From NCBI GenBank assembly GCA_016204995.1, contig JACQJR010000001.1, positions 167,793-231,792 on the forward strand: 64,000 nt of DNA. The letters are read 5' to 3'. Below, in pieces: positions 13,021 through 44,518 of the stretch. The stretch is from Candidatus Microgenomates bacterium. Lineage in GTDB: Bacteria > Patescibacteriota > Microgenomatia > UBA8517 > JACQJR01. The notes below the pieces were generated by a model. That model saw only the letters and a list, made by a program, of their open reading frames with translations, had not been told where the DNA came from and ran no database searches. Position 1 is the stretch's first letter. Every line of letters starts with the position of its first letter. The translations under genes and the position numbers were made by a program.

Positions 13021-13021
13021 A

Positions 13022-14534: not shown

Positions 14535-14885
14535 TCACTTCTTTAAAAAGTAAATTATTAATCCAACAACTAAAAATCCATATACATAATTACCTAATAA
14601 TTCCGCGCTTTCATATTCCCCTAAAAAAATTAGCAATAGAGATATAAACAATAGTAAAAATATCGCCAATAAGATTATTTTTATACTTAGCTTAAAGATA
14701 ATCATAAAAGATGCCATAATCATAAATAGAATTAATTCTTTTTTAATATAGAGATTAAAATAGGGAAGAGTTGGTAAAAGATAAAATAAACCCAATAAAA
14801 AAACAAAACCAATAACTTGATGGCGATTAGTAATAATTTTTTTAAAAAAATATTGTTCCAATTTAACTAACTTATATTTTTTCAT
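14535..14885 (-). CDS. Small hydrophobic membrane protein (hypothetical)
   Basis: Three predicted TM segments. Start set at the internal ATG (MKKYKL), which gives a 4-nt overlap with the upstream giant gene. Confidence 0.3.
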   Translation of the reverse strand: MKKYKLVKLEQYFFKKIITNRHQVIGFVFLLGLFYLLPTLPYFNLYIKKELILFMIMASFMIIFKLSIKIILLAIFLLLFISLLLIFLGEYESAELLGNYVYGFLVVGLIIYFLKK

Positions 14886-19463: not shown

Positions 19464-21664
19464 TTATGGTCCAAGAAATTCTATATCATCTAGATAAAAT
19501 GTACCGCTGTTTTTTGTACCAATCATATTAAAGGACAGTATAGCAAAGCGGGCATCGGGCGGAGCTTTGGCAGTAACTGATATTTTATACCATTTAGATT
19601 GACCGAAAACTCTAGGTGATAAAGCTATCACCTCTCCTGGTAAATTAATATTGGCATCTTCCTTGTTAAAGAAATCTATCCGTAAAAACCCATCGCGTTC
19701 TACCTCATTTAAAAATCCCACTGGTTTTAACCAACCAGTTAAAGTATAAACCTCTGATGGCGTAACAGAAATTTTTGGACTCATTAGTCTAGGACCGCGA
19801 TAATAAATATTTTCTAAATCATACTCTAAAGAGCCTTTTCCACTATGTCCTTCCTTTAAACTAAAAGAAATATTAATTTTACTTTTATTACCTAATTCCT
19901 CTAAACGCCAAAAATCTTTTTCTTGTTCTTTATCAAAAGAAAATCTTTTAATTAAGTTATTAGCCGTTGGCAAAGAAGTAGGCAAGGCAGAAAAATACAA
20001 GCCAGACATGTCACACATACTATCTCTAGTAAAACTTTTTAATAAGTTTGCCCGACTAAAATATTCCCTCATTGCTAAAGTAACATAATAATTTTGGTAA
20101 AGAGGTTGGGGAATAATAAAAAAATTATTTTCAAACATATAAGTAAAACGTGATAAAATCCCAGTATTAATAAAAAAATAATCAAACTTTCGCTCTTGTA
20201 GTTCTGTTAAAAAGAAATCTGTATCAGGCCTCACTTCCGTAACTTGATAAGATTTTTTGGGTAAGGCAATGGGAGAAACTTGGGCTATTTTTTTATCAGC
20301 TGAAATATTTTCGTTAATCCATTTAACGCTAAATTCATCAGGGCTTACCCCACCGCAAGACCAACTACTAACAACAGAAGTTGTGATTGGGTGATAAAGA
20401 ACCAACCCTGATATGACAAAAAATATCATCATGACATTAACCCTCTTTTTAATTATTTTTCCCAAATTATCCTTAAGATTTAACAAAAAAATAGCCGCGA
20501 ATATTGATAAAAATGGCACCAGTGGTAAATTCAACCTTTCATAAACCGCTGGTATATAAAAAGAGTTATAGATAAAGGTAAATAGAGGAATAATTAGTAA
20601 AAATAAAGTTTTTTTAAGATGACGAAATAAAGATAAAAAAATCCCCCCAATTGATACTAAAGCTAAACCTGGCCCTAAAACTCGAAAGATTAAAAATGAT
20701 GAATGAAATTCTTTAAATCCAGTAGGAATAAGAGTTGATAAACTAGGAATACTAGACTTACCGCCTGAAGAAATATAAGATAGGATAGACGTCATAAAAG
20801 CCGTTATAGAAGTCCCATACCATAAAAACTGAGCTCCAGCTTCTTCTTGCAGAATATGACGACTATCGGCACTAAAGAATAAGTATGGCACACCAATAAA
20901 TATTCCCACGGGAATGGCGAGAAGTCCCAAAGAAAATTTTGATAGTCTTTTTGATAATTTATCTTTATCTAAAAAAATAACAAATGGATAAGCAAGAAAA
21001 GCCAAAGGAAAATATTTTATAGTAGAGGACAAACCAATCAAAAAACCACTAGCCAAATACCATTTCAGGCGGCTAGTAGTTACAGCTTTAACCATAAAGA
21101 GTAATGATAAAAGGATGAGAAAGATAAATGAAACATCGGTGGTAATATAATGAGAATCCCTGACATGCAAAGGGTTTAAGGCGAAAATTAAAGCTGATAA
21201 AAAACCGATTTTTGGATTAAATAATTTTTTAGCGATTAGATAAACGATCAAAACGCTTATTGTGCCAATTATGGCTGTCAATGCTCTACCCTCTAAGAAA
21301 GATAAGGAATTGATATCACTAGTTACATATTCAATAAAATCTATGGCTTTGTTATTGAATGATGTAGGCGGAGGTTGAGAAATTTTTAAATTGGTTAAAA
21401 TTATCCCGATAATCCAAAAGGGAATGTAAACTAAAGATTGTAAATAAAAAATCCAAGAACCATATTTATAAGCATGCGGCTCAAAATCTCCATTTGTAAT
21501 AATGTTATAAAAAAGGGCTTTCGCATGTTTTATAATATAAGCCTCATCTGTATGGGCAATATTAGGAACTAGACCGATAAAGCGAACCAGTAGGGCAACA
21601 GCAAGAATGATAAATAAAAGCTTATTATTTTTTAAAGCACGCCGAATTCCCCTCATTAGCATTA
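19464..21664 (-). CDS. GT-C glycosyltransferase, PMT/ArnT-like (group A) with C-terminal CBM-like beta-sandwich domain
   Basis: The loop-1 motif AHTDEAY carries the conserved Asp-Glu. NPLHVRDSHY follows. About 12 TM helices. C-terminal GFLRIDFF...W.K...APP...F...YLDDIEFL is shared with 24921..27164 and 32236..34386. Start placed at MLMRG (complement 21664). The ORF-track start was 21803. Confidence 0.6.
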
Positions 21665-21711
21665 GGCGTATTATACTAGATTTTAATCGTGTATAATATC
21701 TAACATAAATT

Positions 21712-22779
21712 ATGCCAATAACAAAAACTAGTTTAGTTTCCTGTGTAAAAGTAAAAGTTGGAAAAGATCCTAAATTAGTTTTTAAGGCTGTTGCCCAAGC
21801 CATGAAGCTTGCGCATTGGGAAAAATATGTTAAGGGGCGTAATATTGTTTTAAAAGTGAATGTGGTGTGGGATAAACTTTACCCTAGTTGTACTACTACT
21901 CCCATGGTAATAGAAGGAGTCATAAAAACATTGCTCCAGAAGTTTCCCAATGCTAAAATCACCATTGTTGACACCGATACTCCTGGAATCATGCATGCCC
22001 ATTACTCCTTTAGGAATTTAGGTATTAATTACATGGCTAAAAAGTACGGCATCAAGACTGTCAATCTTACCAATACCAGCTTCCGCACCGTCAACCTTAA
22101 CGGCGAAAAACTTAAAAAATTTAAAGTAAGTAAAGTTCTACTTGATGCAGATACAATTATTACCATTCCCGTGATGAAGACCCATTCTATCTCAACAGTA
22201 TCATTGAGTCTTAAAAATCAATGGGGATGTATTCATGATTTAAGACATAACTTTCATCTCTATTTAGCCAAAGCCATCGGGGACGTAAATAATTTTTATA
22301 AAAAGAAGGTTTCGTTTGTAGTTATGGACGGATTATTTGGCATGGAAGGGAAGGGCCCAAAGAATGGAAAACCAGTTAAGGTAGGATTTATTTTTGCTTC
22401 ACCTGACCGCGTAGCTCTTGATACTCTGGTTGCCCAATCCATGGGGTTTGACCCCCAAAAGGTTGATCATATAACTCATTGCCAAAACTTAAAAATTGGC
22501 ACTATGAACTATAAAATCGTTGGGTCAAAACCACCCAAGATGAAATTTGCCAGTCCCCATGATTTTCAGTTAACCTTTTGGGTAGAAATGTTTTTGAGAA
22601 AACTTGGGCCATTTTATGAAAAATTATTTTTCCAAACGAATATTCTTTACCCTTTACGCCTGGCAGCCAGAGTATACAATGACATTTGGTACTATTTTAT
22701 TGGAAGTAAAAACAAGGACAGGATGATGAAAACAGATTTTGGTCAGATGTGGCAAGAATACTTAAATAATGCTTCTTGA
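21712..22779 (+). CDS. DUF362-like domain protein (hypothetical)
   Basis: [21 protein letters not shown] resembles the conserved DUF362 core. Confidence 0.35.
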
Positions 22780-22804
22780 CTAAAATTAGTAAATTGACTA
22801 CATT
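22776..22804 (+). promoter_or_regulatory. Putative promoter (-35 TTGACT, 17-nt spacer, -10 TACATT) upstream of the ATG at 22818
   Basis: Read from the sequence. The -10 box is weak. Confidence 0.3.
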
Positions 22805-22817
22805 ACAAGTAATTAAA

Positions 22818-23951
22818 ATGCCAAAAAACGGTGAGCTAAAAAAACACCCCGCCACAAAATATGCACTCATCACTGGATGCTCTGGGCTGGTTGGCTCGGG
22901 AGCTGTCCGTTTCTTCTGTGAGCGAGACTTTCAAATAATCGGCATAGATAATAATTTTAGAGAGTACTTTTTCGGTAAAGATGCTAGTACGGATTGGATG
23001 AGAAGACAACTTGAGGAAAAATATCCCAAACAGTTCCAACATTTTTCTATTGATATTCGCGATTACCTAACTCTTGAGCAAATTTTTAAAAGATTTAATT
23101 TTGAATTAGTAATTCATACTGCTGCTCAACCCTCTCATGACTGGGCGGCTCGCGAACCTTTAACAGATTTTTCCATTAACGCCGTCGGCACCTCCAACAT
23201 GCTTGAGTTAACTAGATTATATGCTCCTAATTCTGTTTTCATCTTCACCTCTACTAATAAGGTATACGGGGATTTACCCAATGAACTTCCTCTTATTGAA
23301 CTAGAAAAACGTTGGGAAATTAAGCCTACGCATAGATACTCTCGCGGCATTGATGAAACAATGGATATAGATAATAGTGTTCATAGCCTTTTTGGTGCCT
23401 CAAAAGTGGCAGCCGATGTGCTTGTCCAGGAATACGGAAAATATTTTGGCTTGAAGACGGGGGTGTTTAGAGGCGGTTGCCTCACAGGTCCAGCCCACTC
23501 CGGCACTATGCTCCATGGCTTTTTAGCCTATCTTGTTAAAGCAATCGCCAAGGGAATTCCCTACACCATCTTTGGATACAAGGGAAAGCAAGTTAGGGAT
23601 AACATCCACTCCTCCGACCTTATCAATGCCTTTTATCATTTTTACCAAAATCCCCGTCCTGGTGAAGTCTATAATATGGGTGGATCTCGCCACTCCAATG
23701 TTTCTATGCTGGAGGCAATCGCGAAAATCGAAAAATTACTTAAGAAAAAAGGCAATATAAAATATTCTGATGATAATAGAACTGGAGATCATATTTGGTA
23801 TATTTCAGACGTTTCAAAGTTCAAAACTCACTATCCTAATTGGAATTACAAATATGATGGAGACCAAATATTAGAAGAACTATGTAAATCTATGGTGGAT
23901 AAAAGCTATTCTGTCAAAAAAGAAGAAGCCTTTGTAATTAACGAAAGGTAA
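22818..23951 (+). CDS. NAD-dependent sugar epimerase (SDR family; CDP-paratose/tyvelose 2-epimerase-like)
   Basis: [12 protein letters not shown] Rossmann motif. YGASK. Start at MPKNGE. The ORF-track start was 22776. Confidence 0.6.
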
Positions 23952-23958
23952 AATAAAC

Positions 23959-23982
23959 TACTCCGTAGTAAACTACGGAGTA
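23959..23982 (+). terminator. Perfect 10-bp stem / 4-nt loop hairpin (TACTCCGTAG-TAAA-CTACGGAGTA) 8 nt after the stop codon; candidate intrinsic terminator lacking a strong U-tract
   Basis: Inverted repeat read directly from the sequence. Confidence 0.35.
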
Positions 23983-24060
23983 TCCCTTAGGAAAAGTTTG
24001 ATCACTGCTTCGCTAACCCCCGCAGCAGAGCTGCGAGGTATTCGCTAAGTTTGACTAAAT

Positions 24061-24089
24061 TTGCATTTCTATTAAAAACGGTCTATAAT
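24061..24089 (+). promoter_or_regulatory. Putative sigma70-like promoter (-35 TTGCAT, 17-nt spacer, -10 TATAAT) 9 nt upstream of the ATG at 24099
   Basis: Consensus -10 box. No Shine-Dalgarno. Confidence 0.4.
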
Positions 24090-24098
24090 TTTTTTACT

Positions 24099-24860
24099 AT
24101 GCAAGAAAATTTGAAAGGTGGCGAAAATTCCCGTATAGAGGACTTGCCGGTACCAGAATTTAATCTCACAGATGAACAAAAGTTGATATTAACCGGCGTA
24201 GCTGACTGGGTCAGTAATTTTTTTAAAAACGCCGAAGAAAATAACCGTGTGGTTATGGGAGGACACGGTTTTGACCATAATCAGCGTACTGCAGGGATAG
24301 CAGCCGTAATCGCCACACGCGAAGGCTATTCTCCCTTTCTACCAGCGTTGACGAGTTTGATATTTGATATTGGCAGAACCAGTACTGATCCTCGAGCGCA
24401 TAACTTTCGCCATGGAGAATTAAGCCGTGAGATGGCACACGATTTTATTATAGGATTACCTTTAGCGGATGAAGAGAAAACCTTAGTATTAAATGCGATT
24501 GAAGATCACCCCAAACTTAATGATCAGATAGTAGGAGAAAGAAGAAACTGGCTACAAATGATTTTGCAAGATGCCGATAGATTAGATACACTTGGACCGA
24601 TTGGGATAGCAAGAGCCAGCTCCAATCGCTGGAGACTACCACTATTTTCCGATCAAATTGCCATAGGAACCCCTGAAGATACCATAACTACAAGTTTCCA
24701 GGATTATGCTTATCGCGTCCCCGTATGGATTGAGTCTATGTGGACAAAAACCGGTTTAGAGATTACACAAGCTAGAATGCCATATATGCAAGCTGCAATA
24801 GCTGAAATAAGAAAAGAAGCTCAATATATGCATGATGCTTTCGGCAAACTCTTTGAATAA
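24099..24860 (+). CDS. HD-domain superfamily protein (variant: FDIGR in place of the HDLGR motif)
   Basis: GFDHNQRTAGIA (His), LIFDIGRTS and QDADRLDTLG (Asp) match the HD-domain layout. Paralog of 6159..7727 and 53336..54709. Start chosen at the ATG that follows the promoter; the ORF-track start was 24051. Confidence 0.45.
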   Translation: MQENLKGGENSRIEDLPVPEFNLTDEQKLILTGVADWVSNFFKNAEENNRVVMGGHGFDHNQRTAGIAAVIATREGYSPFLPALTSLIFDIGRTSTDPRAHNFRHGELSREMAHDFIIGLPLADEEKTLVLNAIEDHPKLNDQIVGERRNWLQMILQDADRLDTLGPIGIARASSNRWRLPLFSDQIAIGTPEDTITTSFQDYAYRVPVWIESMWTKTGLEITQARMPYMQAAIAEIRKEAQYMHDAFGKLFE

Positions 24861-24884
24861 TTCTCTCCTTCTCTACATCTCTAA

Positions 24885-24913
24885 TTGATGCAAATAATCG
24901 GATAAGTTATACT
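24885..24913 (+). promoter_or_regulatory. Putative promoter (-35 TTGATG, 17-nt spacer, -10 TATACT) ending 7 nt before the GTG start at 24921
   Basis: Read from the sequence. Confidence 0.3.
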
Positions 24914-24920
24914 GCCTGTT

Positions 24921-27164
24921 GTGAGGAGAAAAATTAGATACTTTGCCGACCAAATTTTTAAAAAGAAAAAGGCAATAACATTAATCTTTATCTTAGGGCT
25001 AAGCCTTAGGCTTCTAGGTACCTATCCCGGTTATCCCCTCACCCATCCTGATGAATCAACTATCCAAACTGCCTCTATTGAAATTGCTTTTAAGGGCAAT
25101 TTCTTAACCAAGGCTTATTATTACGGACAGTTGTTACCGCTTATTTATGCCTTTAGTTACCTTTTTTACCTTCCTCTAGCAGCTATTTTCTTTTTACCTA
25201 ATCTTATTACCACTCGGGGTCTAAATCATTTCGGAGAAGAATTTTATAAATTTCTTACCCAAGGTTTCCCTCTACACCAACAAACATTTTGGAGTGTTAA
25301 TTATTGGGCAAGGTACGATAGCGCCATTATTAGCTCTTTAACTATTATTGTTGCCTACTTATTGGGAAAAAAATTATTTAATAAACATATTGGTTTAACA
25401 GTTGCCTTTTTAATTGCTATTAATTACCGACATGTTTTAAGCAGTAGATTAATTTTAGCTGATGCACCGGCAGCCTTTTTTGCGATACTGGCCGTTCTTT
25501 TATTTACTAGGCTTTTACAAAAAACATCTTTAAAAAACTATCTTCTAGCTGGTGTGGGTTTGGGTTTATCCTTATCTGTAAAATATTTTATTTATGTCAT
25601 TCCGGCTTTTTTATTATGCCATCTTTCCTCTTCCTTAAAAACAAAAGGGAATGTGTTAATAAGATTGGTAAAAGTTATTACAAATTATAAATTATTTTTA
25701 TCAGTTCTTACGGCAGTAATTTTACTATTAATTATTAATCCCTATTTTTTATTTGCCCAAAAAGAAGCCGCTTATTATTGGATAGCCAATTCTGCCAGAT
25801 ATGGCTTAAGATTTTCTCTAGAGACACTGCAAAATAATAATTTTTCCTTCTACTCTCTTTACTATTTATTTTATTACGGCTTAAGTCCAATCATTAGTAT
25901 TCTTACTATCTTAGGCTTTATCTGGAGCTTTATTCGTTATCCTAAGGCAGCATTGATTATCTCTATTGTTATCATTCCCTATCTTTATACTTTTTTAGTA
26001 ATTTCTGGAACAGGCATTGTCAGAAACTATGCTGCCATTATTCCGCTTCTATTATTTTTCCCTGCTGTAATTATTGCTGACTTAATTTTATTTTTGCACC
26101 GAATTAAATTTTCTACCATCATTATCACCTTATTAATCTTAACTATCGGCTACCAATCATTAAAATATAGTCTAACTAGCGGATATTATTTGACTCAAGA
26201 GCAAAATATGATTTCTCTTTACAAGTGGATGGATAAAAATTTACCAGAGGATAGCAAAATTATTGGTTCAAGTGGCATCTTCTATCCTGCTGGTCGTAAT
26301 TTTGAGGGAATTAAATTAGATGTCAATTTAAATAACCTAATGAGTATGGAAGAGTTGCAAGAGCAACCAACTCCCTGGCTTATTTTTAGTTCTATCCCTC
26401 AAGATGTGACAGAAAACTTTCTATTGAATAATGAAATTGCCAGAAAATCTTTTATCAGCAATTTCTTGCCTTCATATCTTACTAATAATACTTATAACAC
26501 TCTAGTCTTTAAGGAGCTAGCAGATTTTAGGGTAGCAGAATTTGCCAAACCTTTAACTCAAGATCCCCCATTTATGGTAATTAAAATCCCGCAGTTTGAC
26601 CAAGCTAAAAAAGAGACAACAGTAGCCAGATTTAAATTTACTAACTCTCAACAATTAAATAATTGGTCTTATAATTTCTATCCTACTGATACTTATCAAT
26701 ATACATATGAAAATGGCGTTGTTAATTTCACCCAAAAAACTCCTCAATGTAATACTTTACTTACCCAACTATCTTCAGATAAAACTTATATTATCCCAAA
26801 CCAATGGTATAGCCTCAAAGCTTTAGCCAAACGACAAGCTAATAGTATTTACCAAAGAGCCAGGAATGGATTTTTTAGATTAGATTTTTATGACGGAAAT
26901 GACAATTTAATTAAAACCTATGTCACTCATCCACTTAATTCTAATGTAGGCTGGCAGAAACTATCGGCTGCCGGAATTGCACCGCCGTATGCTACTTATG
27001 CCAAAATTACCTTTCAGATTGATGCCTGTTTTGAGGAAGAAAGCTATAGCTTTAATAACATCACTCTTTTTACTACTAAACAAATACCTAGTATTGACAC
27101 AACCACCTATCATTTCTATATGCAACCCGCGCCTAGTAGTTTTTACTGGTTACCCCAACTTTAA
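24921..27164 (+). CDS. GT-C glycosyltransferase, PMT/ArnT-like (group A) with C-terminal CBM-like domain
   Basis: Loop-1 motif THPDEST. AINYRHVLSSRL. Multi-TM. C-terminal FFRLDFYDGND...GWQKL...APPYATYAKITFQ. GTG start. Confidence 0.6.
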   Translation: MRRKIRYFADQIFKKKKAITLIFILGLSLRLLGTYPGYPLTHPDESTIQTASIEIAFKGNFLTKAYYYGQLLPLIYAFSYLFYLPLAAIFFLPNLITTRGLNHFGEEFYKFLTQGFPLHQQTFWSVNYWARYDSAIISSLTIIVAYLLGKKLFNKHIGLTVAFLIAINYRHVLSSRLILADAPAAFFAILAVLLFTRLLQKTSLKNYLLAGVGLGLSLSVKYFIYVIPAFLLCHLSSSLKTKGNVLIRLVKVITNYKLFLSVLTAVILLLIINPYFLFAQKEAAYYWIANSARYGLRFSLETLQNNNFSFYSLYYLFYYGLSPIISILTILGFIWSFIRYPKAALIISIVIIPYLYTFLVISGTGIVRNYAAIIPLLLFFPAVIIADLILFLHRIKFSTIIITLLILTIGYQSLKYSLTSGYYLTQEQNMISLYKWMDKNLPEDSKIIGSSGIFYPAGRNFEGIKLDVNLNNLMSMEELQEQPTPWLIFSSIPQDVTENFLLNNEIARKSFISNFLPSYLTNNTYNTLVFKELADFRVAEFAKPLTQDPPFMVIKIPQFDQAKKETTVARFKFTNSQQLNNWSYNFYPTDTYQYTYENGVVNFTQKTPQCNTLLTQLSSDKTYIIPNQWYSLKALAKRQANSIYQRARNGFFRLDFYDGNDNLIKTYVTHPLNSNVGWQKLSAAGIAPPYATYAKITFQIDACFEEESYSFNNITLFTTKQIPSIDTTTYHFYMQPAPSSFYWLPQL

Positions 27165-27885
27165 GAGGAAAACCAAAATATTTATACCTCAGGGATTTCA
27201 TAAAAACTTTAAAATAGCCTGGTCCCACTTTTAAGACTTTAAAATTGCTTATTCCCATTCCTTTGGTTCTTTCAATCCAGCTAACTGGAACTTCCTTAAT
27301 ATTATAGCCAAGTAAAATGGCGTAAATCCCAATTTCCGCATTGATGGAAAATCCCGGGCTTTCCAGGTAAGGCTTTAAATCATCAATAATTTGCTTTCTA
27401 TAAAATTTAAAATTATTAGTTACATCCCACTGTCTCATTCCCAAGATGGCTTTAGCTAAGATATGAAAAGATCTATTGGCAATTTTCTTAGGCCAAGCAT
27501 ATCCTTCCAATCTTCCTCCTTTAATAAATCTGGCACCCACTACCCCGTCTGCTTTCTCTCCAGCTTTGACTAATTTTTTAATATCAATAGTATTTTTAGT
27601 GAAATCGCAATCAAGTAGTAAAACATGCGTTGCTTGATCTGAAATTGCTTTTAATCCTTCTCTGATGGCATTTCCTACGCCGCCATTTCTTTTTCTATGC
27701 ACCACAGTCAGTTTTGGATATTTTTTTTTCAGTTTATCCAGAATTTTGCCAGTACTATCTGTACTACAATCATCAACTACTACAACTTGCATCAGATTTT
27801 TTCCTAAATTACCAAACAGAAGTCGTGCCATGTTTTTTATATTTCCCTCTTCATTATGCGCTGGAATGACTACTGAAATTTTCAT
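27133..27885 (-). CDS. GT2 family glycosyltransferase, Dpm1-like
   Basis: ISVVIPAHNEE...VVVVDDCSTDST...NGGVGNA. Confidence 0.75.
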   Translation of the reverse strand: MKISVVIPAHNEEGNIKNMARLLFGNLGKNLMQVVVVDDCSTDSTGKILDKLKKKYPKLTVVHRKRNGGVGNAIREGLKAISDQATHVLLLDCDFTKNTIDIKKLVKAGEKADGVVGARFIKGGRLEGYAWPKKIANRSFHILAKAILGMRQWDVTNNFKFYRKQIIDDLKPYLESPGFSINAEIGIYAILLGYNIKEVPVSWIERTKGMGISNFKVLKVGPGYFKVFMKSLRYKYFGFPLKVGVTSKNY

Positions 27886-29513
27886 AGGTTAAGATCTATT
27901 TTTTTAAGTTCTTTTGATGAAAAGTCATAAAATAAAGCATTGACTTGATTTTTTGTGAGATGATAATCTTTAATGGTCTGGCGCAATTTATGTTCATCAC
28001 TAAAAAATCCAAAACCTAAACTAGCTATTTCTTTATAACCTTCCGTATTTAAATTCCATAAAAATTTATCTTTTATTAATTGACTAGGTATTTTACCAGT
28101 TTGGTAATACCAAATCATTAAGGTATAACCCATACCTTGTTGAAAGGGGACATGATTACCTACTAGGTAAAAATCATGATTACCTGTTATATAAAATATA
28201 TTCTTATTATTATCAAAGGTTGGTTTTAGACGAGATAATTGCGATAATAAACTTCTTCTTTCCTGACTAACAGCGATCAAATCCATTAATGATTTATTTA
28301 AATACTTTAGATGAACCACTAAAAATAGTCCTACCAGGAAAATTGCGACCATACCCAATCTCCATCTATTTAAATATTTGTTTAAGGAAAAAACTGTTAA
28401 TCCCAATATTATTCCCGAAGGTAAGTTGGACAGATAATAATACCTTGATTCAAGATAGGCAAAACTTTTACTTAGTAAAACATAAGGCAGAAAACTTAAT
28501 ACGAAAAATGCTACCCAAAAGATAGCATGCTTTTTGATAGTTATAGATTCTTTTCTAACGGCTAAATAGAAAATAAACAGGATGATTAAGGTTAGAGCAA
28601 CAGCAAATAAATCTATCACTACTGTTTGAACAATAATATTAAAATGCTCCGAAGGAAAAAGGGGATAATAAATATTAGTAAAAAATTTCGCAAAATTTAT
28701 CAATAATTCTTGAGGAATAAAAGTCAGAGATAAGGAAGTTAATGGATAGAAAAAAAATCTCGTGATAATTGTAGGGATATTATTAGTGGTGGAAGAAGAG
28801 ATAAACAATTCTGATGAGCGATCAACCGACAAAAACCAGGTTAGTCTTGTTATAGCGATGGAAAAAAATATAAATAAAAATGGCCAAAATTTTTTAAAGA
28901 AATCTCTCCATGATAATCTGTTGTAGAGTAAGGCACCTAGAGGCATTAATAGAAATAGAAATATTCCTATCTCCTTGAAGAAGAGTGAAATATAAAGAGT
29001 TAATAAAGAAACATACAGCCACTTAATCTTTAAGTTAGATAAATAGTTAAAATAAAGTATTAGTGACGACAAAATTAAAGTTACTGCTACCAGGGTACCT
29101 AAGGAAGTACCAAACCAGGAAACAGCACTATGAGAAACGCTAGAGATGGTAAAAAATAAAGTTCCTATAGAAGCAAATAAACTATTTTTAATAATCCATT
29201 TTCTAACTAAATAAAAAACCAATAAAGAATTAGCTGTATGGAAAAATATGCTGTACAAGGCTATAGCGCTAGTATTAAAAGATAACTTTCCAAAAAAAAT
29301 ATAGCTTAGGAGTATAGAAGCAAATCTATCTTGGGCGACTAAAAGTTTAGCGGGAGTTAAGTTATCAAAAATTTCCGTAAAATTTTTTAATATGATATTA
29401 TTACCAATATTCTGCCATTCATCTTGTTGATAAAAAACTTGTGTAAGGCCGCTATAAACCAAAATAGTAATTAATGATAAGAAAATAAATGGGGGTAAGA
29501 AGGCCTTACTCAT
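27882..29513 (-). CDS. Polytopic membrane protein with C-terminal soluble domain (hypothetical; possible GT-C/polymerase-like)
   Basis: About 12 hydrophobic helices followed by a roughly 150-aa hydrophilic tail. Confidence 0.35.
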   Translation of the reverse strand: MSKAFLPPFIFLSLITILVYSGLTQVFYQQDEWQNIGNNIILKNFTEIFDNLTPAKLLVAQDRFASILLSYIFFGKLSFNTSAIALYSIFFHTANSLLVFYLVRKWIIKNSLFASIGTLFFTISSVSHSAVSWFGTSLGTLVAVTLILSSLILYFNYLSNLKIKWLYVSLLTLYISLFFKEIGIFLFLLMPLGALLYNRLSWRDFFKKFWPFLFIFFSIAITRLTWFLSVDRSSELFISSSTTNNIPTIITRFFFYPLTSLSLTFIPQELLINFAKFFTNIYYPLFPSEHFNIIVQTVVIDLFAVALTLIILFIFYLAVRKESITIKKHAIFWVAFFVLSFLPYVLLSKSFAYLESRYYYLSNLPSGIILGLTVFSLNKYLNRWRLGMVAIFLVGLFLVVHLKYLNKSLMDLIAVSQERRSLLSQLSRLKPTFDNNKNIFYITGNHDFYLVGNHVPFQQGMGYTLMIWYYQTGKIPSQLIKDKFLWNLNTEGYKEIASLGFGFFSDEHKLRQTIKDYHLTKNQVNALFYDFSSKELKKIDLNL

Positions 29514-29583
29514 AACTTAATTATGATAAATTGTAGCAGAATATTCACAACAGACAAACTTTATGTTAGGATAGAGAACATTA

Positions 29584-30846
29584 GTGTATCCTATGAAAAA
29601 ATTAAATAAAAGACCTAATAACTTCCGCCCTAAAAATAAATCATTCTATTCTACAAGTCTAAAGTCCTTATACAAGGCTCATATTACCGAAGGCGAATCT
29701 GTTTTAGAATTTAGCTATGGAATAGAAAATGTGCTGGATGATCTTAATCTTAAAAAAAATCACGCAAGAATAGATATAAGTCGTAAAGTAAAGCCACTAA
29801 AAACGAGAACTAAATTTGACCGAATTATTATACATAATCTTGTAGAGTATGTCTTTGATGTTCAGTTAATCATTGAACGGGCTAGAAGACATATTAAGTC
29901 TGATGGTTTACTTATTCTCTCATCCATCAATCCCCTATGGAAAACATCATTTAAACCTGAAATAAGGAAAAATTGGCAACATACTATATCTCTAAAACAT
30001 CTAATCAGCATAGTTAAGCTAGCAGGATTCCAGATTGAAAAATCAGGTTATCTTATGCCTAAGCTATCCAAATTAGGCGCAATCCAATATCTAGTAGCAA
30101 AACCGCTAACTGCTATGAAAAAAGATCCATCAGTCAGCATCGTCATACCCTGTTACAACGAAGAAGATAATGTTGTAGAAACAGTAAAACAAGCTCCTAA
30201 ACTTGGTAGATTTACAGAAATTATAGTGGTAGATGATGCTTCTAAAGATAAAACTAAGGAAGTAGCAGAATCCTTGAGGAAAAAGTATAAAAATCTCAAA
30301 GTTGTTTCTCGCAAATTAAATGGCGGTAAGGGGCCCGCAGTTAAATCTGGTATTGATGCCGCCAAAGGAGATATCTTGATTATCTGGGATGCGGATAGAA
30401 CTGTACCAGCCAGTGAACTGTATCGTTTTTACGATGCATTAGCGTTGGGTTTGGGACAATTCTCCAATGGCACCCGCATGATCTATAGAATGGAAGGTGA
30501 GGCTATGAGACCATTGCATGTTTTAGGCAATACAGTCTTTGGCTGGCTTTTTAGCTGGATCTTTAGCAATGGCATTAGTGATACACTTTGTGGTACCAAA
30601 GCTTTATTTATGAAAGATGCTAGAAAAATAGAAATGGGCAAGGAAAGATGGGGAGATTTTGATTTATTATTTGGAGCAGCCAGACTTGGTTTAAAAATAG
30701 CCGAGGTGCCTATTCACTATAAATCCCGTGTAGCTGGAGAATCAAAAATGCGAACCTTCAATTATGGCTTTAAGGTAGGTAAAATGGCATTATCAGGTAT
30801 GATTGAATTTAAAATAAAGCCTATTCTAAAAACACTAGTTAGCTGA
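29584..30846 (+). CDS. Fusion: degenerate class I SAM-methyltransferase-like N-terminal domain plus C-terminal GT2 (Dpm1-like) glycosyltransferase
   Basis: N-terminal VLEFSYG (degenerate GxGxG) and FDRIIIHNLVEYV...IKSDGLLIL (MTase post-II motifs). C-terminal VSIVIPCYNEE...IIVVDDASKDKT...IWDAD. Confidence 0.55.
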   Translation: MYPMKKLNKRPNNFRPKNKSFYSTSLKSLYKAHITEGESVLEFSYGIENVLDDLNLKKNHARIDISRKVKPLKTRTKFDRIIIHNLVEYVFDVQLIIERARRHIKSDGLLILSSINPLWKTSFKPEIRKNWQHTISLKHLISIVKLAGFQIEKSGYLMPKLSKLGAIQYLVAKPLTAMKKDPSVSIVIPCYNEEDNVVETVKQAPKLGRFTEIIVVDDASKDKTKEVAESLRKKYKNLKVVSRKLNGGKGPAVKSGIDAAKGDILIIWDADRTVPASELYRFYDALALGLGQFSNGTRMIYRMEGEAMRPLHVLGNTVFGWLFSWIFSNGISDTLCGTKALFMKDARKIEMGKERWGDFDLLFGAARLGLKIAEVPIHYKSRVAGESKMRTFNYGFKVGKMALSGMIEFKIKPILKTLVS

Positions 30847-30987
30847 TAGTTATCTTCAAAACAATTCTGCTTTTTGCTAATGAAGCTCCACGGCTAAATT
30901 CTTAATTACCTTCTTTGGCTGATAAAATTAACTGAAATAGGGGATTGACATTATCTTCCATAAAATATTTAATGATATACATTAATA

Positions 30988-32199
30988 ATGGAAAGATCTA
31001 CCTTCACAGATGCTAAATCTAAACTTGAATACCATCCTCAAACTGTTGAACGCCTATTAAACAACGAACCCGTTATACCAATAAGTATGGAAGTAGATTT
31101 ATCATACTTTTGCGGTGATCAATGTACGTTTTGCCACTTTTCCTACACCCACCAGAAACCCGTTAGAACCGATGCTCTTCTCCCTATCTTAGAGAAAGTT
31201 TTCATGCCCCCCAAGCTGGCCGATGAAGTATTGAGAAAAATGAACGAAGCCGGAGTTAAATCAATTGTTTTTTCTGGAGGGGGAGAACCTACTGATAGCC
31301 CTTTCGCTTTGGAAATTTTTAAAATGGCTAAATCTTACAATCTGGAGTTAGGGATGTACACTAGGGGATTTAACCTAAAAGGTGAACTAGGAGAATTTGT
31401 GGCTAATAACTTTGAATGGGTGGTGGTCTCGCTAGATGTGACTAATCCGGAAGAGCATAAACTTATCAAAGGCACTAATGGGAAAATATTTTTGGAAAAG
31501 TTGGAAAACATCCATAACTTTTTGAAAATACCTAATCGGCATGCCAATATTAGTGTTAGCGCCATGGTGGATACCGGCCACCTAGAAAATGTACCGCCAT
31601 ATCCGGAACAGCAAGATTTATTTGGAACAGATGCCACCCAAGTTACTAAATTAGAACGGGATATGCTTTGGTTATTGGGGTTAGGCGCTGATGAGGTACA
31701 GATTAGACCAATTATAGATACCGGATCATATAAAGAGCAAAGAGAATCTCACCAAATGAAGGGGATGGCTTTTATGACTGATAAACAAATCTGGCAGGAA
31801 CATTATAGTTGGATTCCTAAAGTAGTATCAATTCTGGAAAGATATAATAGTCTAGCTGGCCTAAATACGTCAATAGATAAATTTCATCAAGTCTATGAAG
31901 GGGAAAGTGGAGAGGAGACATGTTATGGTATGGTAATATCAGCTGGTTTGGTTGCCAGTGATGGAAAAGTCTACAAATGCGTCAACACACGATCTATTCC
32001 GGAAAAAATTATTGGCGATTTAAAAACCCAATCCATGGAAGAGATTTTTCTTTCCGAATCTTTAGATCGCTCCATTGATAGTTTTTGCAGGGTCGGATGT
32101 CGAGGATGTAAAGTCAATGAAGTTTTTAATAGACTATCTCATTCCGAAACAGTATTCTTATCACCACGACAAGGTGTCAAACATCCCAATTTTATTTAG
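30988..32199 (+). CDS. Radical SAM enzyme with C-terminal auxiliary-cluster (SPASM/twitch-like) cysteines
   Basis: Canonical CGDQCTFC (CX3CXFC). FSGGGEPT GGE motif. C-terminal C-x18-C...CRVGCRGC. Confidence 0.65.
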   Translation: MERSTFTDAKSKLEYHPQTVERLLNNEPVIPISMEVDLSYFCGDQCTFCHFSYTHQKPVRTDALLPILEKVFMPPKLADEVLRKMNEAGVKSIVFSGGGEPTDSPFALEIFKMAKSYNLELGMYTRGFNLKGELGEFVANNFEWVVVSLDVTNPEEHKLIKGTNGKIFLEKLENIHNFLKIPNRHANISVSAMVDTGHLENVPPYPEQQDLFGTDATQVTKLERDMLWLLGLGADEVQIRPIIDTGSYKEQRESHQMKGMAFMTDKQIWQEHYSWIPKVVSILERYNSLAGLNTSIDKFHQVYEGESGEETCYGMVISAGLVASDGKVYKCVNTRSIPEKIIGDLKTQSMEEIFLSESLDRSIDSFCRVGCRGCKVNEVFNRLSHSETVFLSPRQGVKHPNFI

Positions 32200-32235
32200 T
32201 AAAAACGTTTAATTTACTATGACTTAAAAAAGTTT

Positions 32236-34386
32236 ATGAAAAATGTCACGCGGGCTAAACTTTTACTCTTAATATTAATCTTAGCTTTTTTATTAAGAAC
32301 CATCGGTATTACCCCAAATTTCCAACAGCATCCTGATGAACCTGGAGTAATCGAACCCGCAAGCAAAATTGCAATAAATACAATTTTCCATCATAATCCA
32401 GACCCCAATGTAGAACCTCAACCATTTAAATACTCCTCCTCTATTTTCTATATGCACGCTTTAATTAGAAGCATTATTCTCATGAGCAGCTACTCCATTT
32501 ACAAAACTACCGGCTTTACCTTTAACATCCCAAAACAAAATTTCGGCGAACCAAGTTTTGAACAGTTTATAGCAGATTTAGGCCCCTACTTTTTGAGTGA
32601 TATTTTATTATGGGCGCACAGATTCCCCAGTGTAATATTTGGAACGCTTACTGTCCTTTTCGTTTATAAGACTGCTTTACTTTTATTTAAAAAAGGGGGT
32701 CTTGCCTTACTTTCCGCATTAGCACTTGCTATCATGCCCCAGCACGTCCGCGACTCGCATTGGGCAACAGTCGGTATTATTCAGACTTTCTTCTTTACCC
32801 TAGCTTTTTATCTAAGTGCAAGAGCATGGAAATTACCAGACACCAAAAATTGGATTATGGCCAGCGTTATCGCTGGTTTTGCAGTGTCTATTAAATACTT
32901 CCCCTTGCCCTTACTACCTCTCTTTTTTTTTCTCTTTTTGGCACGTACTAAAATTACACCTAGTTTTCTGATTATTATCTTTTTGTCAATCTTTGTTGGT
33001 TATTTTTTGGGCATGCCCTATATTTTTGCCCATATTCAAGAAATGATTAATGCTTTCAAATCTCAAGTTGCTTTTTATTCTCCTGAAAAAGTAGGAGGTG
33101 AACAATCATTTTTTGCGCACATTTTGCCTTTATATTTGCACGGATACCACTTCAATTTTTTTTACAAAATAGCCGTGGGGCCATTACTTTCGTTAGTTGG
33201 GTTAATTGGAACATTTTATGGGATTAAAAAGTGGGGATTGGAAGCTGTTTCGCTACTAATTATCCCCGTCATCAACCTGCTATTCATAACTTTTTATTTA
33301 GAAGCAGTTTACGAAACGCTTGATATTCCCGCTCTACCTTTTTTCGCTATATTTATCGGAATAGGAGCTTGGGCCATCTTACAAAAAGCTCAAAATAACA
33401 AAATCATATTGGCGGTGATATTAAGTATTATATTTTTGCCTGCATTTTTAGATTCTGCCCAAGCCTCATTAGCATGCACAAAAACTATTACTGAATTTGA
33501 GGCCCATGATTGGATAGCTGAAAATATTCCAGAAGGAATTACTTTAGCATTTCAACCGAATATGCGCCTCCCTTCTAAAAATTTTAAATTTGTCCGCTCT
33601 GAACCAAAAGAGAAGTTTTTACTTGCCGAAATTCAAGAAAGTGGCGCAGAATATGTTGCCTTGCATTCAGGATACACCGATCGTTATTCCCAATGGCTCG
33701 ATGATAAACTTTTTCTATCGCAGTATGTCAAAAATAATGAATTTACACATCTTGTTCTGCAGGAATATGAGCAAAATACAAGGCTGCTAAAATCATTCGT
33801 TAAACCCACCATGTGCGTAAATAGCCGTATATATATTTATAAGATTCCCCCTCTTCTTAATCCAGCTAAAAATATAATTCAACAGTTTAACTTTAGTGAC
33901 CAAAACTATTTCTCTGGTTGGAAATTAGGTCATCTAAAAGTTCCCTCGGGAACAAGGATTGAACTATTATCAACATCAAATGGTACTAAATTAAAGTATC
34001 AATATGACTCTGATATCTTTTCCCAGCAGTTGGGAAAAGGGACTTTACCTCCTGCTTTTTACGGCACCCCATTTCGCTCTCCCTTTATTAATATAAATAG
34101 TGAAAAAAAATATTCTGCAACTATGTTAGTTAAAAAGATATACAGATCTTTAAGTCAACTCCCCAATGGATTTCTAAGATTAGACTTTTATCAAAGCAAC
34201 AAAGAAGAACCTATTTTAACTAGAATTTCGCCTAGGCTTACGCCAGAAAACAATGAATGGCAAAAATTGCTTATTACTTCCTATGCACCTAATAATGCCA
34301 AATTTGCTACTATCTCTTTTCAAACATCAGTGGCTTCAGAACCTTCAGAATATTTGATAGATAAAGCCACTCTGATGGGAGATTAG
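32236..34386 (+). CDS. GT-C glycosyltransferase, PMT/ArnT-like (group A) with C-terminal CBM-like domain
   Basis: Loop-1 motif QHPDEPG. MPQHVRDSHW. Multi-TM. C-terminal GFLRLDFYQSNKEEP...EWQKL...APNNAKFATISFQ. Confidence 0.6.
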   Translation: MKNVTRAKLLLLILILAFLLRTIGITPNFQQHPDEPGVIEPASKIAINTIFHHNPDPNVEPQPFKYSSSIFYMHALIRSIILMSSYSIYKTTGFTFNIPKQNFGEPSFEQFIADLGPYFLSDILLWAHRFPSVIFGTLTVLFVYKTALLLFKKGGLALLSALALAIMPQHVRDSHWATVGIIQTFFFTLAFYLSARAWKLPDTKNWIMASVIAGFAVSIKYFPLPLLPLFFFLFLARTKITPSFLIIIFLSIFVGYFLGMPYIFAHIQEMINAFKSQVAFYSPEKVGGEQSFFAHILPLYLHGYHFNFFYKIAVGPLLSLVGLIGTFYGIKKWGLEAVSLLIIPVINLLFITFYLEAVYETLDIPALPFFAIFIGIGAWAILQKAQNNKIILAVILSIIFLPAFLDSAQASLACTKTITEFEAHDWIAENIPEGITLAFQPNMRLPSKNFKFVRSEPKEKFLLAEIQESGAEYVALHSGYTDRYSQWLDDKLFLSQYVKNNEFTHLVLQEYEQNTRLLKSFVKPTMCVNSRIYIYKIPPLLNPAKNIIQQFNFSDQNYFSGWKLGHLKVPSGTRIELLSTSNGTKLKYQYDSDIFSQQLGKGTLPPAFYGTPFRSPFININSEKKYSATMLVKKIYRSLSQLPNGFLRLDFYQSNKEEPILTRISPRLTPENNEWQKLLITSYAPNNAKFATISFQTSVASEPSEYLIDKATLMGD

Positions 34387-34390
34387 AAAA

Positions 34391-36832
34391 TTATTCAGCG
34401 TTTAAGAGGCTTTTATCTTTATTAAATTCTTTGAGTGAAGGATGCCATGCTTCTATTTTACTAATTTTTAGATTGCTGGGGAAATCAGCTACATTAATTT
34501 TAATAGATTTAATTCGCCTACCTGTTTTTGGCAGCTGAATTGTATATTCATTAAAGCTACTCAAACCTTTTATATAAATTTTCTGCTCCTGCCCAGCTGG
34601 GTAACCCCCATCCCCATCCACTCTCCAATTTATTTCTACGGGAATTTTTTCCTTTAAAATTTGTTTGTAAAAACGCAGCATTGTTTCCCAATTAGGAAAA
34701 TATGCTGCCGGGTTATTCCTAACAAGGAAGTAATTTTCTAAATCTTTCTTCTCCAAAGGTTTATCAAAAATTTCAATCTCATCTACAGCCGGCGTCCAAC
34801 CGCCTCTTGTCTTTTTAATAATTAGACGAATGTATTTTGCTTCCTTTCCACCTACTTCTGTGGTAAAAAACTGTCCTGTTGTCAATCTGGGTGCATTAGT
34901 TACATGCTCAACAGTGATAAATTCTTTACCATCCTGGGAAATAGAAATTTCATATTCTGATGGCGCTCGGAACTCCCACGGTGCAGTCCGAGAAGAAGCC
35001 CAAACAATCTTGTAGACCTTTGTGAGATCTCCAAGATCTATGGTAACCTTGGTCCCTTCCGACTCCCACTGCGAAGGAATCCAAGTAGTTACATTTTTAC
35101 CATCAATTACATTATTTATATTGTGCTCATCACTCATAGAGGAAACATCAGCTGTAATCATTTTTGCTCTTTTAGCCTCTTGATTAAAGAATAGATCAAA
35201 GTATTGATCAAGCGACATACTCCCTCCTTGTAGGAACAATTTTGGGGCTATTTCTTTGGTTAAATCAACTCGCATCCATGCCTTGATAAAAACCGGGGTG
35301 GAGGCGGGAATATCCAAATCAGTTAGTTCAATTTCTTTGCCATCTAAATTGCTGCCTAAATTGACTTTTTGTCCAGCCGATAAAATCTTACGAGCTTCCG
35401 GCGTCTCTTCCAAAATATCTCCTCGTTTATAGTCAAAAGCATAAATATCATTAGGCCCTAAATTATTATGTTGGAGTAATCTCACGGCTTCTAGTGGATC
35501 TGTTGCTAAATGAAAATCATCAAATCGCTTACTATAAAATCCTGCTAGAAAATGAGCGCTGCCCGCATCGCTGCCGGAAACATAAGGTCCGGGCGGGTAA
35601 GGACGCGTAAGTGTGGTCAATAAAACTGAATCCCTATCAATATGCGGAGCTTTAGTGGTAATAGTCTCATAAAAATACTTTAAATGACTAGAATGAGATT
35701 CCCATCTATTGTTAATTACATAATTTGAGAAGTAAATATGAAACAATAAAATAATAAAAAAGACTAGTAACTGCAGTTTCTTTCTAAGAATACTTAAAAT
35801 AATTGCAAGGTACCCTGAAACAAATGGAAGCAAGACTATATAAAATCTGTGCGAAGAGGGCCAAATAGTGGGGATTTGACCGACAAAGGAAATAACTAAC
35901 ATAATCACCGCTAAAGATAAAAATATTATCAAAGAAAAAAAGAATGCTATCCAAAAAAGTTTTTTCTTTTCACGCCAAAGATGTAATAAAGGTAGAATTA
36001 AAACGAGTAAGGCCAGAAATCCAAAAATCGTCTCAATACTCTCCGGCAATTTACTAAAAATCAATAACAGGTCTGAAGGGAACAAAACGTTCCCCAGATT
36101 TTTTACAAAAACATCTAACATTTCCCAGCTAATATTAAGATGAGTAATTTTGCCAAAGATAAGTTTGAAGCTTTGAAAAAAAATTATGACAGGCAAAATA
36201 AATAAAATTACCATAGGCAAAAAAGGGCGCCACGATATTCTTTTACCAGTTTGGTAAGTTTGAGATAAAATTAAAAGCGGAATCCAAATCAAAAGTAGAA
36301 AAGAACGAAATTGAAAAAAATAGAGGGAAAATAAAAGTGAGGCTGCGAAAAAGATTAAATTAAATTTGCTTCTATGCTTTAAATAATTAATCAGCAAAAT
36401 TAGGGTTAAAAGAGACGATATAAGAAAAACTAAGTGAATTTGTCCTCCAGCCACATTCCACGTTAAAGATTCAATGCCCAAATAACCACTTGCCGCAATA
36501 GCAGCAGCATACACTGAAATTTCTTTCCTTTTTGTGTACAGAATCCGCATAAATAAATAAAACAATACTAGAAATAATAAGAAAAGAATAAACGAGGCAA
36601 GGTAATAAAAAAATGGATTGTAACCAAAAAAGAAATACTCTATAGTTACCAATGGTCGCAGAAATAAATAAGCTACAAACCCGGGATACAAAAAAATACT
36701 ATGTGGATCACTGGGGAATTGGACTCCATAAAGCAAAGAAAAATCCTCATAAGAAAAATAATATTTAAGGATTTGAGAAATGCTTAAAAAAGCAATGACA
36801 ATAATCAAAAAAATCTTCTTAATCATTTGCAA
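34391..36832 (-). CDS. YfhO-like/GT-C polytopic membrane protein (group C) with C-terminal discoidin (F5/8 type C)-like carbohydrate-binding domain
   Basis: N-terminal TM plus YFSYEDFSLLYG acidic loop. About 13 TM helices. C-terminal NVIDGKNVTTWIPSQW...YKIVWASSR...EISISQDGKEF...TRGGWTPAVDEIEIF resembles a discoidin/F5/8-C domain. Confidence 0.5.
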   Translation of the reverse strand: MQMIKKIFLIIVIAFLSISQILKYYFSYEDFSLLYGVQFPSDPHSIFLYPGFVAYLFLRPLVTIEYFFFGYNPFFYYLASFILFLLFLVLFYLFMRILYTKRKEISVYAAAIAASGYLGIESLTWNVAGGQIHLVFLISSLLTLILLINYLKHRSKFNLIFFAASLLFSLYFFQFRSFLLLIWIPLLILSQTYQTGKRISWRPFLPMVILFILPVIIFFQSFKLIFGKITHLNISWEMLDVFVKNLGNVLFPSDLLLIFSKLPESIETIFGFLALLVLILPLLHLWREKKKLFWIAFFFSLIIFLSLAVIMLVISFVGQIPTIWPSSHRFYIVLLPFVSGYLAIILSILRKKLQLLVFFIILLFHIYFSNYVINNRWESHSSHLKYFYETITTKAPHIDRDSVLLTTLTRPYPPGPYVSGSDAGSAHFLAGFYSKRFDDFHLATDPLEAVRLLQHNNLGPNDIYAFDYKRGDILEETPEARKILSAGQKVNLGSNLDGKEIELTDLDIPASTPVFIKAWMRVDLTKEIAPKLFLQGGSMSLDQYFDLFFNQEAKRAKMITADVSSMSDEHNINNVIDGKNVTTWIPSQWESEGTKVTIDLGDLTKVYKIVWASSRTAPWEFRAPSEYEISISQDGKEFITVEHVTNAPRLTTGQFFTTEVGGKEAKYIRLIIKKTRGGWTPAVDEIEIFDKPLEKKDLENYFLVRNNPAAYFPNWETMLRFYKQILKEKIPVEINWRVDGDGGYPAGQEQKIYIKGLSSFNEYTIQLPKTGRRIKSIKINVADFPSNLKISKIEAWHPSLKEFNKDKSLLNAE

Positions 36833-44474: not shown

Positions 44475-44518
44475 TTAGTTTTGATATGATATACTCATTA
44501 GACTGCAATTTGCAACCA

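Follow-up and report, generated by a model that had tools for sequence, protein, structure and literature searches.

A 64,000-nucleotide stretch of the genome of a Candidatus Microgenomates bacterium (GCA_016204995.1, contig JACQJR010000001.1, positions 167,793-231,792) contains three genes, termed here A, B, and C, whose products join a membrane glycosyltransferase of the GT-C_A fold to a C-terminal domain that is a divergent branch of the carbohydrate-binding module (CBM) family CBM_4_9. This whole stretch is referred to as the window, and all coordinates are positions within it. We consider it likely that A, B, and C are three-part enzymes, composed of a GT-C core, a small alpha/beta domain, and a rigidly attached CBM_4_9-like sandwich, and that the CBM holds the acceptor glycan while the sugar is taken from a lipid-linked donor. 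That GT-C enzymes can carry a C-terminal CBM for binding the acceptor was already known, and no new mechanism is proposed here; what is new is the annotation of an unrecognized CBM_4_9-like domain, a motif for its GT-C-dedicated subfamily, and fusion evidence for a GT2 partner.

Three anciently diverged GT-C paralogs

The three genes and the features within them are listed below, with lengths in amino acids (aa) and TM denoting transmembrane helices.

19464..21656, minus strand: paralog A, GT-C glycosyltransferase with C-terminal CBM-like domain, 730 aa, MBI4058790.1
21543..21554, minus strand: HTDE of A (residues 35-38 in the numbering of the 730-aa protein), within the loop that follows TM1
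19977..20294, minus strand: alpha/beta middle domain of A (approximately residues 455-560), after the last TM helix, placed from the secondary structure of the model
19467..19964, minus strand: C-terminal CBM_4_9-like beta-sandwich of A (approximately residues 565-730), with GFLRIDFF at residues 656-663
24921..27164, plus strand: paralog B, GT-C glycosyltransferase with C-terminal CBM-like domain, 747 aa, MBI4058794.1
25044..25055, plus strand: HPDE of B (residues 42-45), after TM1
26598..27074, plus strand: C-terminal CBM_4_9-like domain of B (approximately residues 560-718)
32236..34386, plus strand: paralog C, GT-C glycosyltransferase with C-terminal CBM-like domain, 716 aa, MBI4058799.1
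32329..32340, plus strand: HPDE of C (residues 32-35), after TM1
33868..34383, plus strand: C-terminal CBM_4_9-like domain of C (approximately residues 545-716)

The longest open reading frame (ORF) for A is 19464..21803 (minus strand, 779 aa), and the NCBI protein begins at M50 of this frame, which sets the gene at 19464..21656; the end at 21664 proposed in an initial annotation of the window is not in frame with a start codon. In the NCBI records, A and C are named "glycosyltransferase family 39 protein", and B is named "phospholipid carrier-dependent glycosyltransferase".

The same annotation had described the three products as GT-C paralogs resembling GT39 and GT83 enzymes, and this was borne out, since the ORFs exist, their translations exceed the thresholds of two Pfam profiles, and each contains H(T/P)DE after TM1. 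Scores for A, B, and C were 65.4, 47.5, and 53.3 bits with PMT_2 (PF13231, gathering threshold 26.1) and 44.6, 53.8, and 28.7 bits with PMT (PF02366, gathering threshold 22.7), with E-values between 1e-6 and 9e-18; the PMT profile was covered only in part, from about position 72 to 236 of 245. The family profile also matched the yeast Pmt1 structure 6p25 (E 2.8e-8), and each protein has 9-10 hydrophobic segments, within the 7-13 TM helices that define a polytopic GT-C_A core. The acidic pair of the motif (D37 and E38 in A numbering) is invariant across a 26-sequence family alignment and lies at the position of the DE motif of the PMTs, the protein O-mannosyltransferases, in which this invariant motif catalyzes inverting transfer (PMC12705809). 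A, B, and C are GT-C_A-fold membrane glycosyltransferases of the PMT_2 (GT39/GT83-like) sequence superfamily.

Marks of better-known GT-C groups were also looked for in the three proteins. A Pfam scan gave no match to MIR or PMT_4TMC at E <= 1, and in a structural model of A there is no beta-rich insert inside the TM region, the strands starting only after residue 455. The translations contain no WWDxG-type motif of the oligosaccharyltransferases (OSTs) and have no Pfam STT3 match, and no ArnT model of NCBIfam was matched, the NCBIfam matches being limited to weak ones with Agl23, archaeal STT3, and NTTRR-F1. Because MIR, PMT_4TMC, WWDxG, and an ArnT equivalog match are all missing, A, B, and C are placed, as judged from their sequences, in the bacterial PMT_2/GT39-like superfamily and not among the eukaryote-type PMTs, the OSTs, or ArnT.

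Identity among A, B, and C is 23-32%, and A-, B-, and C-type orthologs can be separated in other genomes, each matching its own type at E 1e-120 to 1e-186. A recent duplication as their origin is ruled out by these values, which instead indicate old, anciently diverged paralogs of one enzyme family of the Microgenomates, members of the candidate phyla radiation (CPR; Patescibacteria). Presumably, the specificities of the three differ. Paralog B has, in addition, a 29-aa aromatic-rich tail past the CBM (KQIPSIDTTTYHFYMQPAPSSFYWLPQL; 27075..27161, plus strand) that is absent from A and C, and the coding sequence of this tail overlaps the 3' end of a convergent GT2 gene at 27133..27885.

The C-terminal domain and its GT-C-linked branch

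The C-termini of A, B, and C resemble one another far more than chance would allow (E 1e-5 to 1e-10 in both blastp and tblastn), and no further copy was found when the six-frame translation of the whole window was searched by tblastn at E <= 1. A shared segment of about 90 aa had been noted in the initial annotation; the common domain is in fact ∼165 aa long (160-170; residues 565-730 in A), and the last 90-100 aa are merely its best-conserved portion. The motifs quoted for that segment are present with small deviations. The motif strand reads GFLRIDFF in A, GFFRLDFY in B, and GFLRLDFY in C, followed by WYKI, WQKL, and WQKL, respectively, and then by AP and, further on, FAILSF (a deviation from the quoted pattern), YAKITF, and FATISF. 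The terminal DD/DK given with them holds for A (DD) and C (DK) and fails for B, which has NN.

A first model of the domain, from the three sequences alone, was all-beta with a pLDDT of 67.8. When full-length A was modeled by AlphaFold2 with 26 homologs, the pLDDT rose to 89.9 (87-98 within the C-terminal domain) and the pTM was 0.88. In this model, TM helices extend to approximately residue 450, an alpha/beta domain occupies residues 455-560, and a 10-strand sandwich occupies residues 565-730, with no linker between the last two. There is no Pfam match for the alpha/beta domain. Homology to ArnT, PglB, and AglB suggests that both it and the CBM would be extracellular. The sandwich has the beta-jelly-roll fold of CBM4, CBM9, CBM16, and CBM22; Foldseek with the model of A matched CBM22 at E 2e-6 with a target-normalised TM score of 0.71 (4xup, 2zez), and all of the top fold matches of the domain were polysaccharide-binding CBMs. 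With the whole chain of A, STT3 and AglB gave the best Foldseek matches, and Emb and AftD were among the others.

Homologs of the C-terminus of A were not found by a word-indexed search and were found by an exhaustive one, in which 1.84 billion representatives, clustered at 50% identity, were scored with a three-copy profile. At E <= 1e-3 this profile detected 441 proteins, of which 129 had E <= 1e-10, and it reached tandem-repeat proteins (P0031 at E 5e-19, P0110, and P0112) in which the same regions are matched by Pfam CBM_4_9 at E 3e-34, 5e-23, and 8.5e-18, respectively, the last of them (P0112) also carrying cohesin and dockerin domains. GT-C relatives of A, B, and C approach the CBM_4_9 threshold from below: P0003 scores 18.1 bits (E 0.0036) over profile positions 2-131 of 136 and P0009 scores 20 bits, and 7 of 40 family members match at E <= 1, the best at 5.5e-5, all sub-threshold. 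In a search of the PDB sequences, a profile made solely from the 40 GT-C sequences matched the CBM22 of Clostridium thermocellum Xyn10B (E 0.0095). Since the structure prediction and the profile searches agree, the C-terminal domain is a divergent branch of CBM_4_9 (CBM4/22-like) and not a new fold, as the initial annotation had anticipated in likening it to a CBM4/9-like beta-sandwich. The NCBIfam family NTTRR-F1 (NF033675; cut-off 70 bits), which A and C match with 18.1 and 13.6 bits, respectively, is probably another distant jelly-roll relative. The top matches of the 40-sequence profile, the N-terminal domains of M1 aminopeptidases (E 0.003), were judged to reflect chance or a generic beta-sandwich likeness and were set aside, and the three-sequence profile gave only a spurious viral fusion-protein match in the PDB sequence search.

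To describe the family, we took a census of the 150 best representatives from the three-copy profile search. Of these, 79 are full-length GT-C proteins in which the domain forms the extreme C-terminus, and 10 are GT-C fragments. A further 24 are short pieces, probably fragments of genes, 36 are large proteins of other than GT-C type that carry the domain in tandem, and 1 lies outside all of these groups. The similarity is thus not confined to the three copies of the window. Neither is the architecture undescribed, as had been supposed: the domain belongs to a branch of a known Pfam family with at least these 79 representatives, its proteins are deposited at NCBI, and GT-C enzymes with a CBM have been published (PMC3044687, PMC11127046).

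The motif strand distinguishes the copies attached to GT-C enzymes. Of the 79 full GT-C proteins, 65 have G-F-x-R-x-D-F-Y, as do 20 of the 24 short pieces; it is absent from all 36 tandem-CBM proteins, which have only a generic l-x-l-x-F-Y strand. Across the 26-sequence alignment, the CBM residues conserved at 90% or more are W583, Y637, R659, D661, W689, and S708. By this distribution, G-F-x-R-x-D-F-Y marks a CBM_4_9 subfamily dedicated to GT-C enzymes, whose window copies fall under every threshold of the parent Pfam family (PF02018; CAZy CBM4, CBM9, CBM16, and CBM22). The motif is a simple signature for finding the family. With it, a fold and a probable role can be given to ∼165 unannotated residues of a multi-copy family common in Microgenomates, and the pairing of GT-C with an acceptor-binding CBM, as in Emb, AftD, and GT136, would extend to the PMT_2 superfamily and to CPR bacteria.

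Donor, acceptor, and the role of the C-terminal domain

Several of the GT2 proteins of the window resemble polyprenyl-phosphate-sugar synthases (ArnC, AglJ, Dol-P-hexose transferase, PgfS, and PpgS). ORF 44486..45463 encodes a full-length match to the ArnC model (E 1.3e-46) with two TM segments at its C-terminal end, and two genes lie next to or near the paralogs.

29584..30846, plus strand: methyltransferase-like plus GT2 protein, 420 aa, on the same strand as C and two genes upstream of it
27133..27885, minus strand: GT2 of AglJ/Dol-P-hexose transferase/ArnC type, 250 aa, convergent with B and overlapping its 3' end

The best partial matches of the first were AglJ, Dol-P-hexose transferase, and ArnC, and it is a candidate polyprenyl-phosphate-sugar synthase. 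Orthologs of it (46-49% identity, E 1e-109 to 1e-126) form the N-terminal halves of natural fusions of ∼1120-1210 aa from other Microgenomates, in which methyltransferase-like, GT2, GT-C, and CBM parts follow one another in that order (P0003 and P0158-P0161; L001 1082..4462 and L007 2875..6516). A homolog of the second adjoins a B-type ortholog in locus L021. The fusions point to a donor-synthesizing partner of the GT-C enzymes, and from fusion and adjacency to GT2s of the ArnC/AglJ/Dol-P-hexose-transferase kind we infer that A, B, and C probably use a lipid-phosphate-linked donor.

Characterized GT-C enzymes offer a model for the CBM. The enzyme ORF12 of Citrobacter youngae O1 (GT136; PMC11127046) is, like A, B, and C, a GT-C_A enzyme with a beta-rich C-terminal CBM; this CBM binds the unmodified O-polysaccharide backbone, the polyprenyl-phosphate monosaccharide donor comes from a partner synthase, and side-chain sugars are added after polymerization (PMC11127046). 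It differs from A, B, and C in forming its own family, whereas they match PMT_2 and PMT, in relying on a phosphoribosyl-type synthase and a MATE flippase, whereas their partners are ArnC/AglJ-like GT2s, and in its Gram-negative host with lipopolysaccharide, whereas theirs is a CPR bacterium. EmbA, EmbB, EmbC, and AftD also carry CBMs (PMC11127046), and the C-terminal CBM of EmbC is required for efficient activity (PMC3044687). These enzymes resemble A, B, and C in having a C-terminal lectin-like CBM, which in them engages the growing glycan, and in occurring as several GT-C paralogs, which in their case serve one polymer, and an AftD-like GT-C (PF11847, E 7e-7) is encoded in the probable operon of paralog A. 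The Emb proteins differ in belonging to GT53, in size (∼1050-1100 aa), in a two-subdomain C-terminal region with another CBM type, and in their decaprenyl-phosphate arabinose donor, and they have no sequence similarity to A, B, and C past the GT-C core. By analogy with these systems, it is reasonable that the C-terminal domain might tether the enzyme to its glycan or select the acceptor.

By sequence, the closest known enzymes are the GT39 PMTs (Pmt1/2/4) and bacterial GT39 proteins, which have in common with A, B, and C the DE motif after TM1 and a lectin-like accessory domain, predicted to be non-cytoplasmic in A, B, and C, and probably also the lipid-phosphate-sugar logic. This raises the possibility that A, B, and C are protein O-glycosyltransferases acting on S-layer, pilus, or secreted proteins, in which the sandwich takes the part of MIR and recognizes a protein or glycosylated-peptide acceptor. 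Consistent with it are the best sequence matches (PMT, PMT_2, and yeast Pmt1), the NCBI name GT39, the PMT DE motif, the presence of protein-binding jelly-roll domains among the fold matches, and the fact that bacterial GT39 enzymes glycosylate proteins, with a CBM-like insert predicted in that of C. bescii (PMC6151902). The MIR domain of the PMTs, however, is a beta-trefoil between TM7 and TM8 and is accompanied by PMT_4TMC, whereas A, B, and C lack both and have a C-terminal jelly-roll instead, whose top fold matches are all to polysaccharide-binding modules. Moreover, all 64 kb of the window make up an island for glycan biosynthesis, encoding at least nine further polytopic GT-C-like proteins, including the AftD-like one at 14882..18421, ∼10 GT2 genes, one GT1, methyltransferases, sugar-nucleotide dehydratases/epimerases, DegT aminotransferases, a formyltransferase, acetyltransferases, and two radical-SAM proteins, a set that fits a complex polysaccharide better than protein modification. 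We therefore regard a protein acceptor as unlikely; the acceptor is probably a glycan rather than protein Ser/Thr. The two kinds of acceptor do not shut each other out, as the glycan of a glycoprotein could be the target. ArnT (GT83), which modifies lipid A, has no CBM, in contrast to A, B, and C. CPR bacteria are not expected to make lipid A.

Other GT-C-like proteins of the island have a different lectin-type domain at the same position.

34391..36832, minus strand: GT-C-like protein with an F5/8 type C domain after the TM region, 813 aa, E ∼1e-11
38253..40751, minus strand: GT-C-like protein with an F5/8 type C domain after the TM region, 832 aa, E ∼1e-11

Both have 10-11 TM segments, and the F5/8 type C domain is the discoidin, CBM32-like domain. 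Two PMT_2 paralogs, 49103..51172 and 51174..53162 (both minus strand), give faint C-terminal F5/8 type C matches as well (E 0.004 and 0.04), so that a tail of lectin type seems to be the norm among the GT-C enzymes of this island. This exchange of domains supports a ligand-binding role for the tail. It bears on a further explanation, in which the sandwich is a structural brace of the extracytoplasmic part, like the peripheral beta-rich units of AglB and STT3, and the G-F-x-R-x-D-F-Y strand is a docking surface without a ligand role. A fixed arrangement is suggested by the lack of a linker and the whole-chain pTM, the restriction of the motif to GT-C-attached copies is what would be expected of an interface with the enzyme, and STT3 and AglB, the best whole-chain matches, have such domains. 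Yet the likeness of A, B, and C to STT3, AglB, and PglB (GT66) is at the level of fold only, with the WWDxG-type motif absent, and the homologous modules in tandem-array, cohesin/dockerin, and Big_4 proteins are typical glycan-binding CBM_4_9 domains. The conserved Trp, Tyr, Arg, and Asp are also a typical sugar-binding set, and the F5/8 type C domains argue for a swappable, ligand-binding part. A purely structural role is accordingly improbable, even more so than a protein acceptor.

The preferred reading, a CBM that holds the acceptor glycan beside a GT-C core, can be put as a series of steps. A sugar would be loaded onto polyprenyl phosphate at the cytoplasmic face by an ArnC/GtrB/AglJ-like GT2, and the lipid-linked sugar would then be flipped to the outer face of the membrane. 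There, the GT-C domain, with the Asp-Glu after TM1 as its catalytic center, would transfer one sugar, inverting its linkage, to a glycan of the cell surface or of a glycoprotein. The CBM would keep the acceptor polymer beside the active site and help to pick the position that is modified, and the three paralogs may serve different decorated positions or different donor sugars. The first three steps follow the established logic of the three-component and Arn systems, and the fourth follows the experimentally characterized ORF12 (GT136), EmbC, and AftD. Of the components of the three-component GtrA/GtrB/Gtr*-like systems, two are recognized here, the GT2 and the GT-C, encoded side by side and in some proteins joined in one chain.

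Several observations weigh against this reading. The C-termini of A, B, and C have no Pfam match to CBM_4_9 (PF02018, threshold 25.9 bits) even at E 10, and the identity of the domain to solved CBMs is just 9-18%. The subfamily-specific R-x-D motif could mark the surface at which the domain contacts the body of the enzyme rather than a site for a ligand. The GT2 whose gene adjoins A (18418..19458) resembles ordinary polysaccharide GT2s and not a polyprenyl-phosphate sugar synthase, and no flippase of the GtrA, MATE, or SMR type was recognized among the proteins of the window.

A bolder version of the reading, which we put forward as a tentative possibility, is that the G-F-x-R-x-D-F-Y branch is a distinct, largely Microgenomates, GT-C-dedicated CBM family that binds a conserved envelope glycan, and that it forms, together with the AftD-like and F5/8-type-C GT-Cs, a mycobacteria-like, lectin-bearing assembly line outside the membrane. 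More remotely, the CBM might act as a lectin for a surface glycan of the episymbiont's host cell.

Occurrence in other genomes and neighboring genes

Literature searches returned no published paper on a GT-C-CBM family in CPR bacteria. The spread of the family was surveyed by a motif scan of GTDB species genomes, which yielded 20 loci. Their sources are the Microgenomates groups Levy-, Roizman-, Davies-, Gottesman-, and Shapirobacteria, one Parcubacteria bin, and several metagenome-assembled genomes (MAGs) titled "uncultured Gammaproteobacteria". Each locus has one to three of the paralogs and, like the window, is a glycan-biosynthesis island with several GT-C paralogs. Because the loci of the "uncultured Gammaproteobacteria" MAGs (L004, L007, L009, L010, L013, L014, L019, and L020) have the gene content of Microgenomates loci, these titles are probably wrong.

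In the window, paralog A is followed on the same strand by three genes.

18418..19458, minus strand: GT2, 346 aa, 5 bp downstream of A
14882..18421, minus strand: AftD-like GT-C, 1179 aa (PF11847, as above), with a DUF5667 segment and a C-terminal TM helix
14535..14939, minus strand: 4-TM protein, 134 aa, with no family match

The four genes probably form one operon, and an order of genes for a GT2, a 1112-aa protein, and a 122-aa protein recurs in a second Microgenomates contig (L002, 12802..17537). The 134-aa protein is a possible flippase candidate.

Beyond this operon, an Arn-like sugar-tailoring block (8868..14465, minus strand) encodes a formyltransferase in which both the N- and the C-terminal domain are present, a pair of DegT-type aminotransferases, a dehydratase/epimerase, a GFO/IDH/MocA oxidoreductase, and an acetyltransferase of the hexapeptide type. 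Such a set of enzymes suggests that the building blocks are amino-deoxy sugars carrying N-formyl or N-acetyl groups. One of the radical-SAM proteins, with a SPASM domain (30988..32199, plus strand), is encoded between the methyltransferase-GT2 gene and C, and the other at 3227..4318 (minus strand). A gene at 55298..57769 (minus strand) encodes an 823-aa fusion of a PglF/PseB-like dehydratase (Polysacc_synt_2, E 6e-105) and a DegT aminotransferase (E 4e-97), the halves of which are separate adjacent genes in related loci (L003/L004, 7113..9575). Finally, a 543-aa protein with approximately seven TM segments (27882..29513, minus strand), without a Pfam or NCBIfam match, is conserved in L002 (1967..3598, E 8e-102) and could be a polymerase, a ligase, or a flippase-type component.

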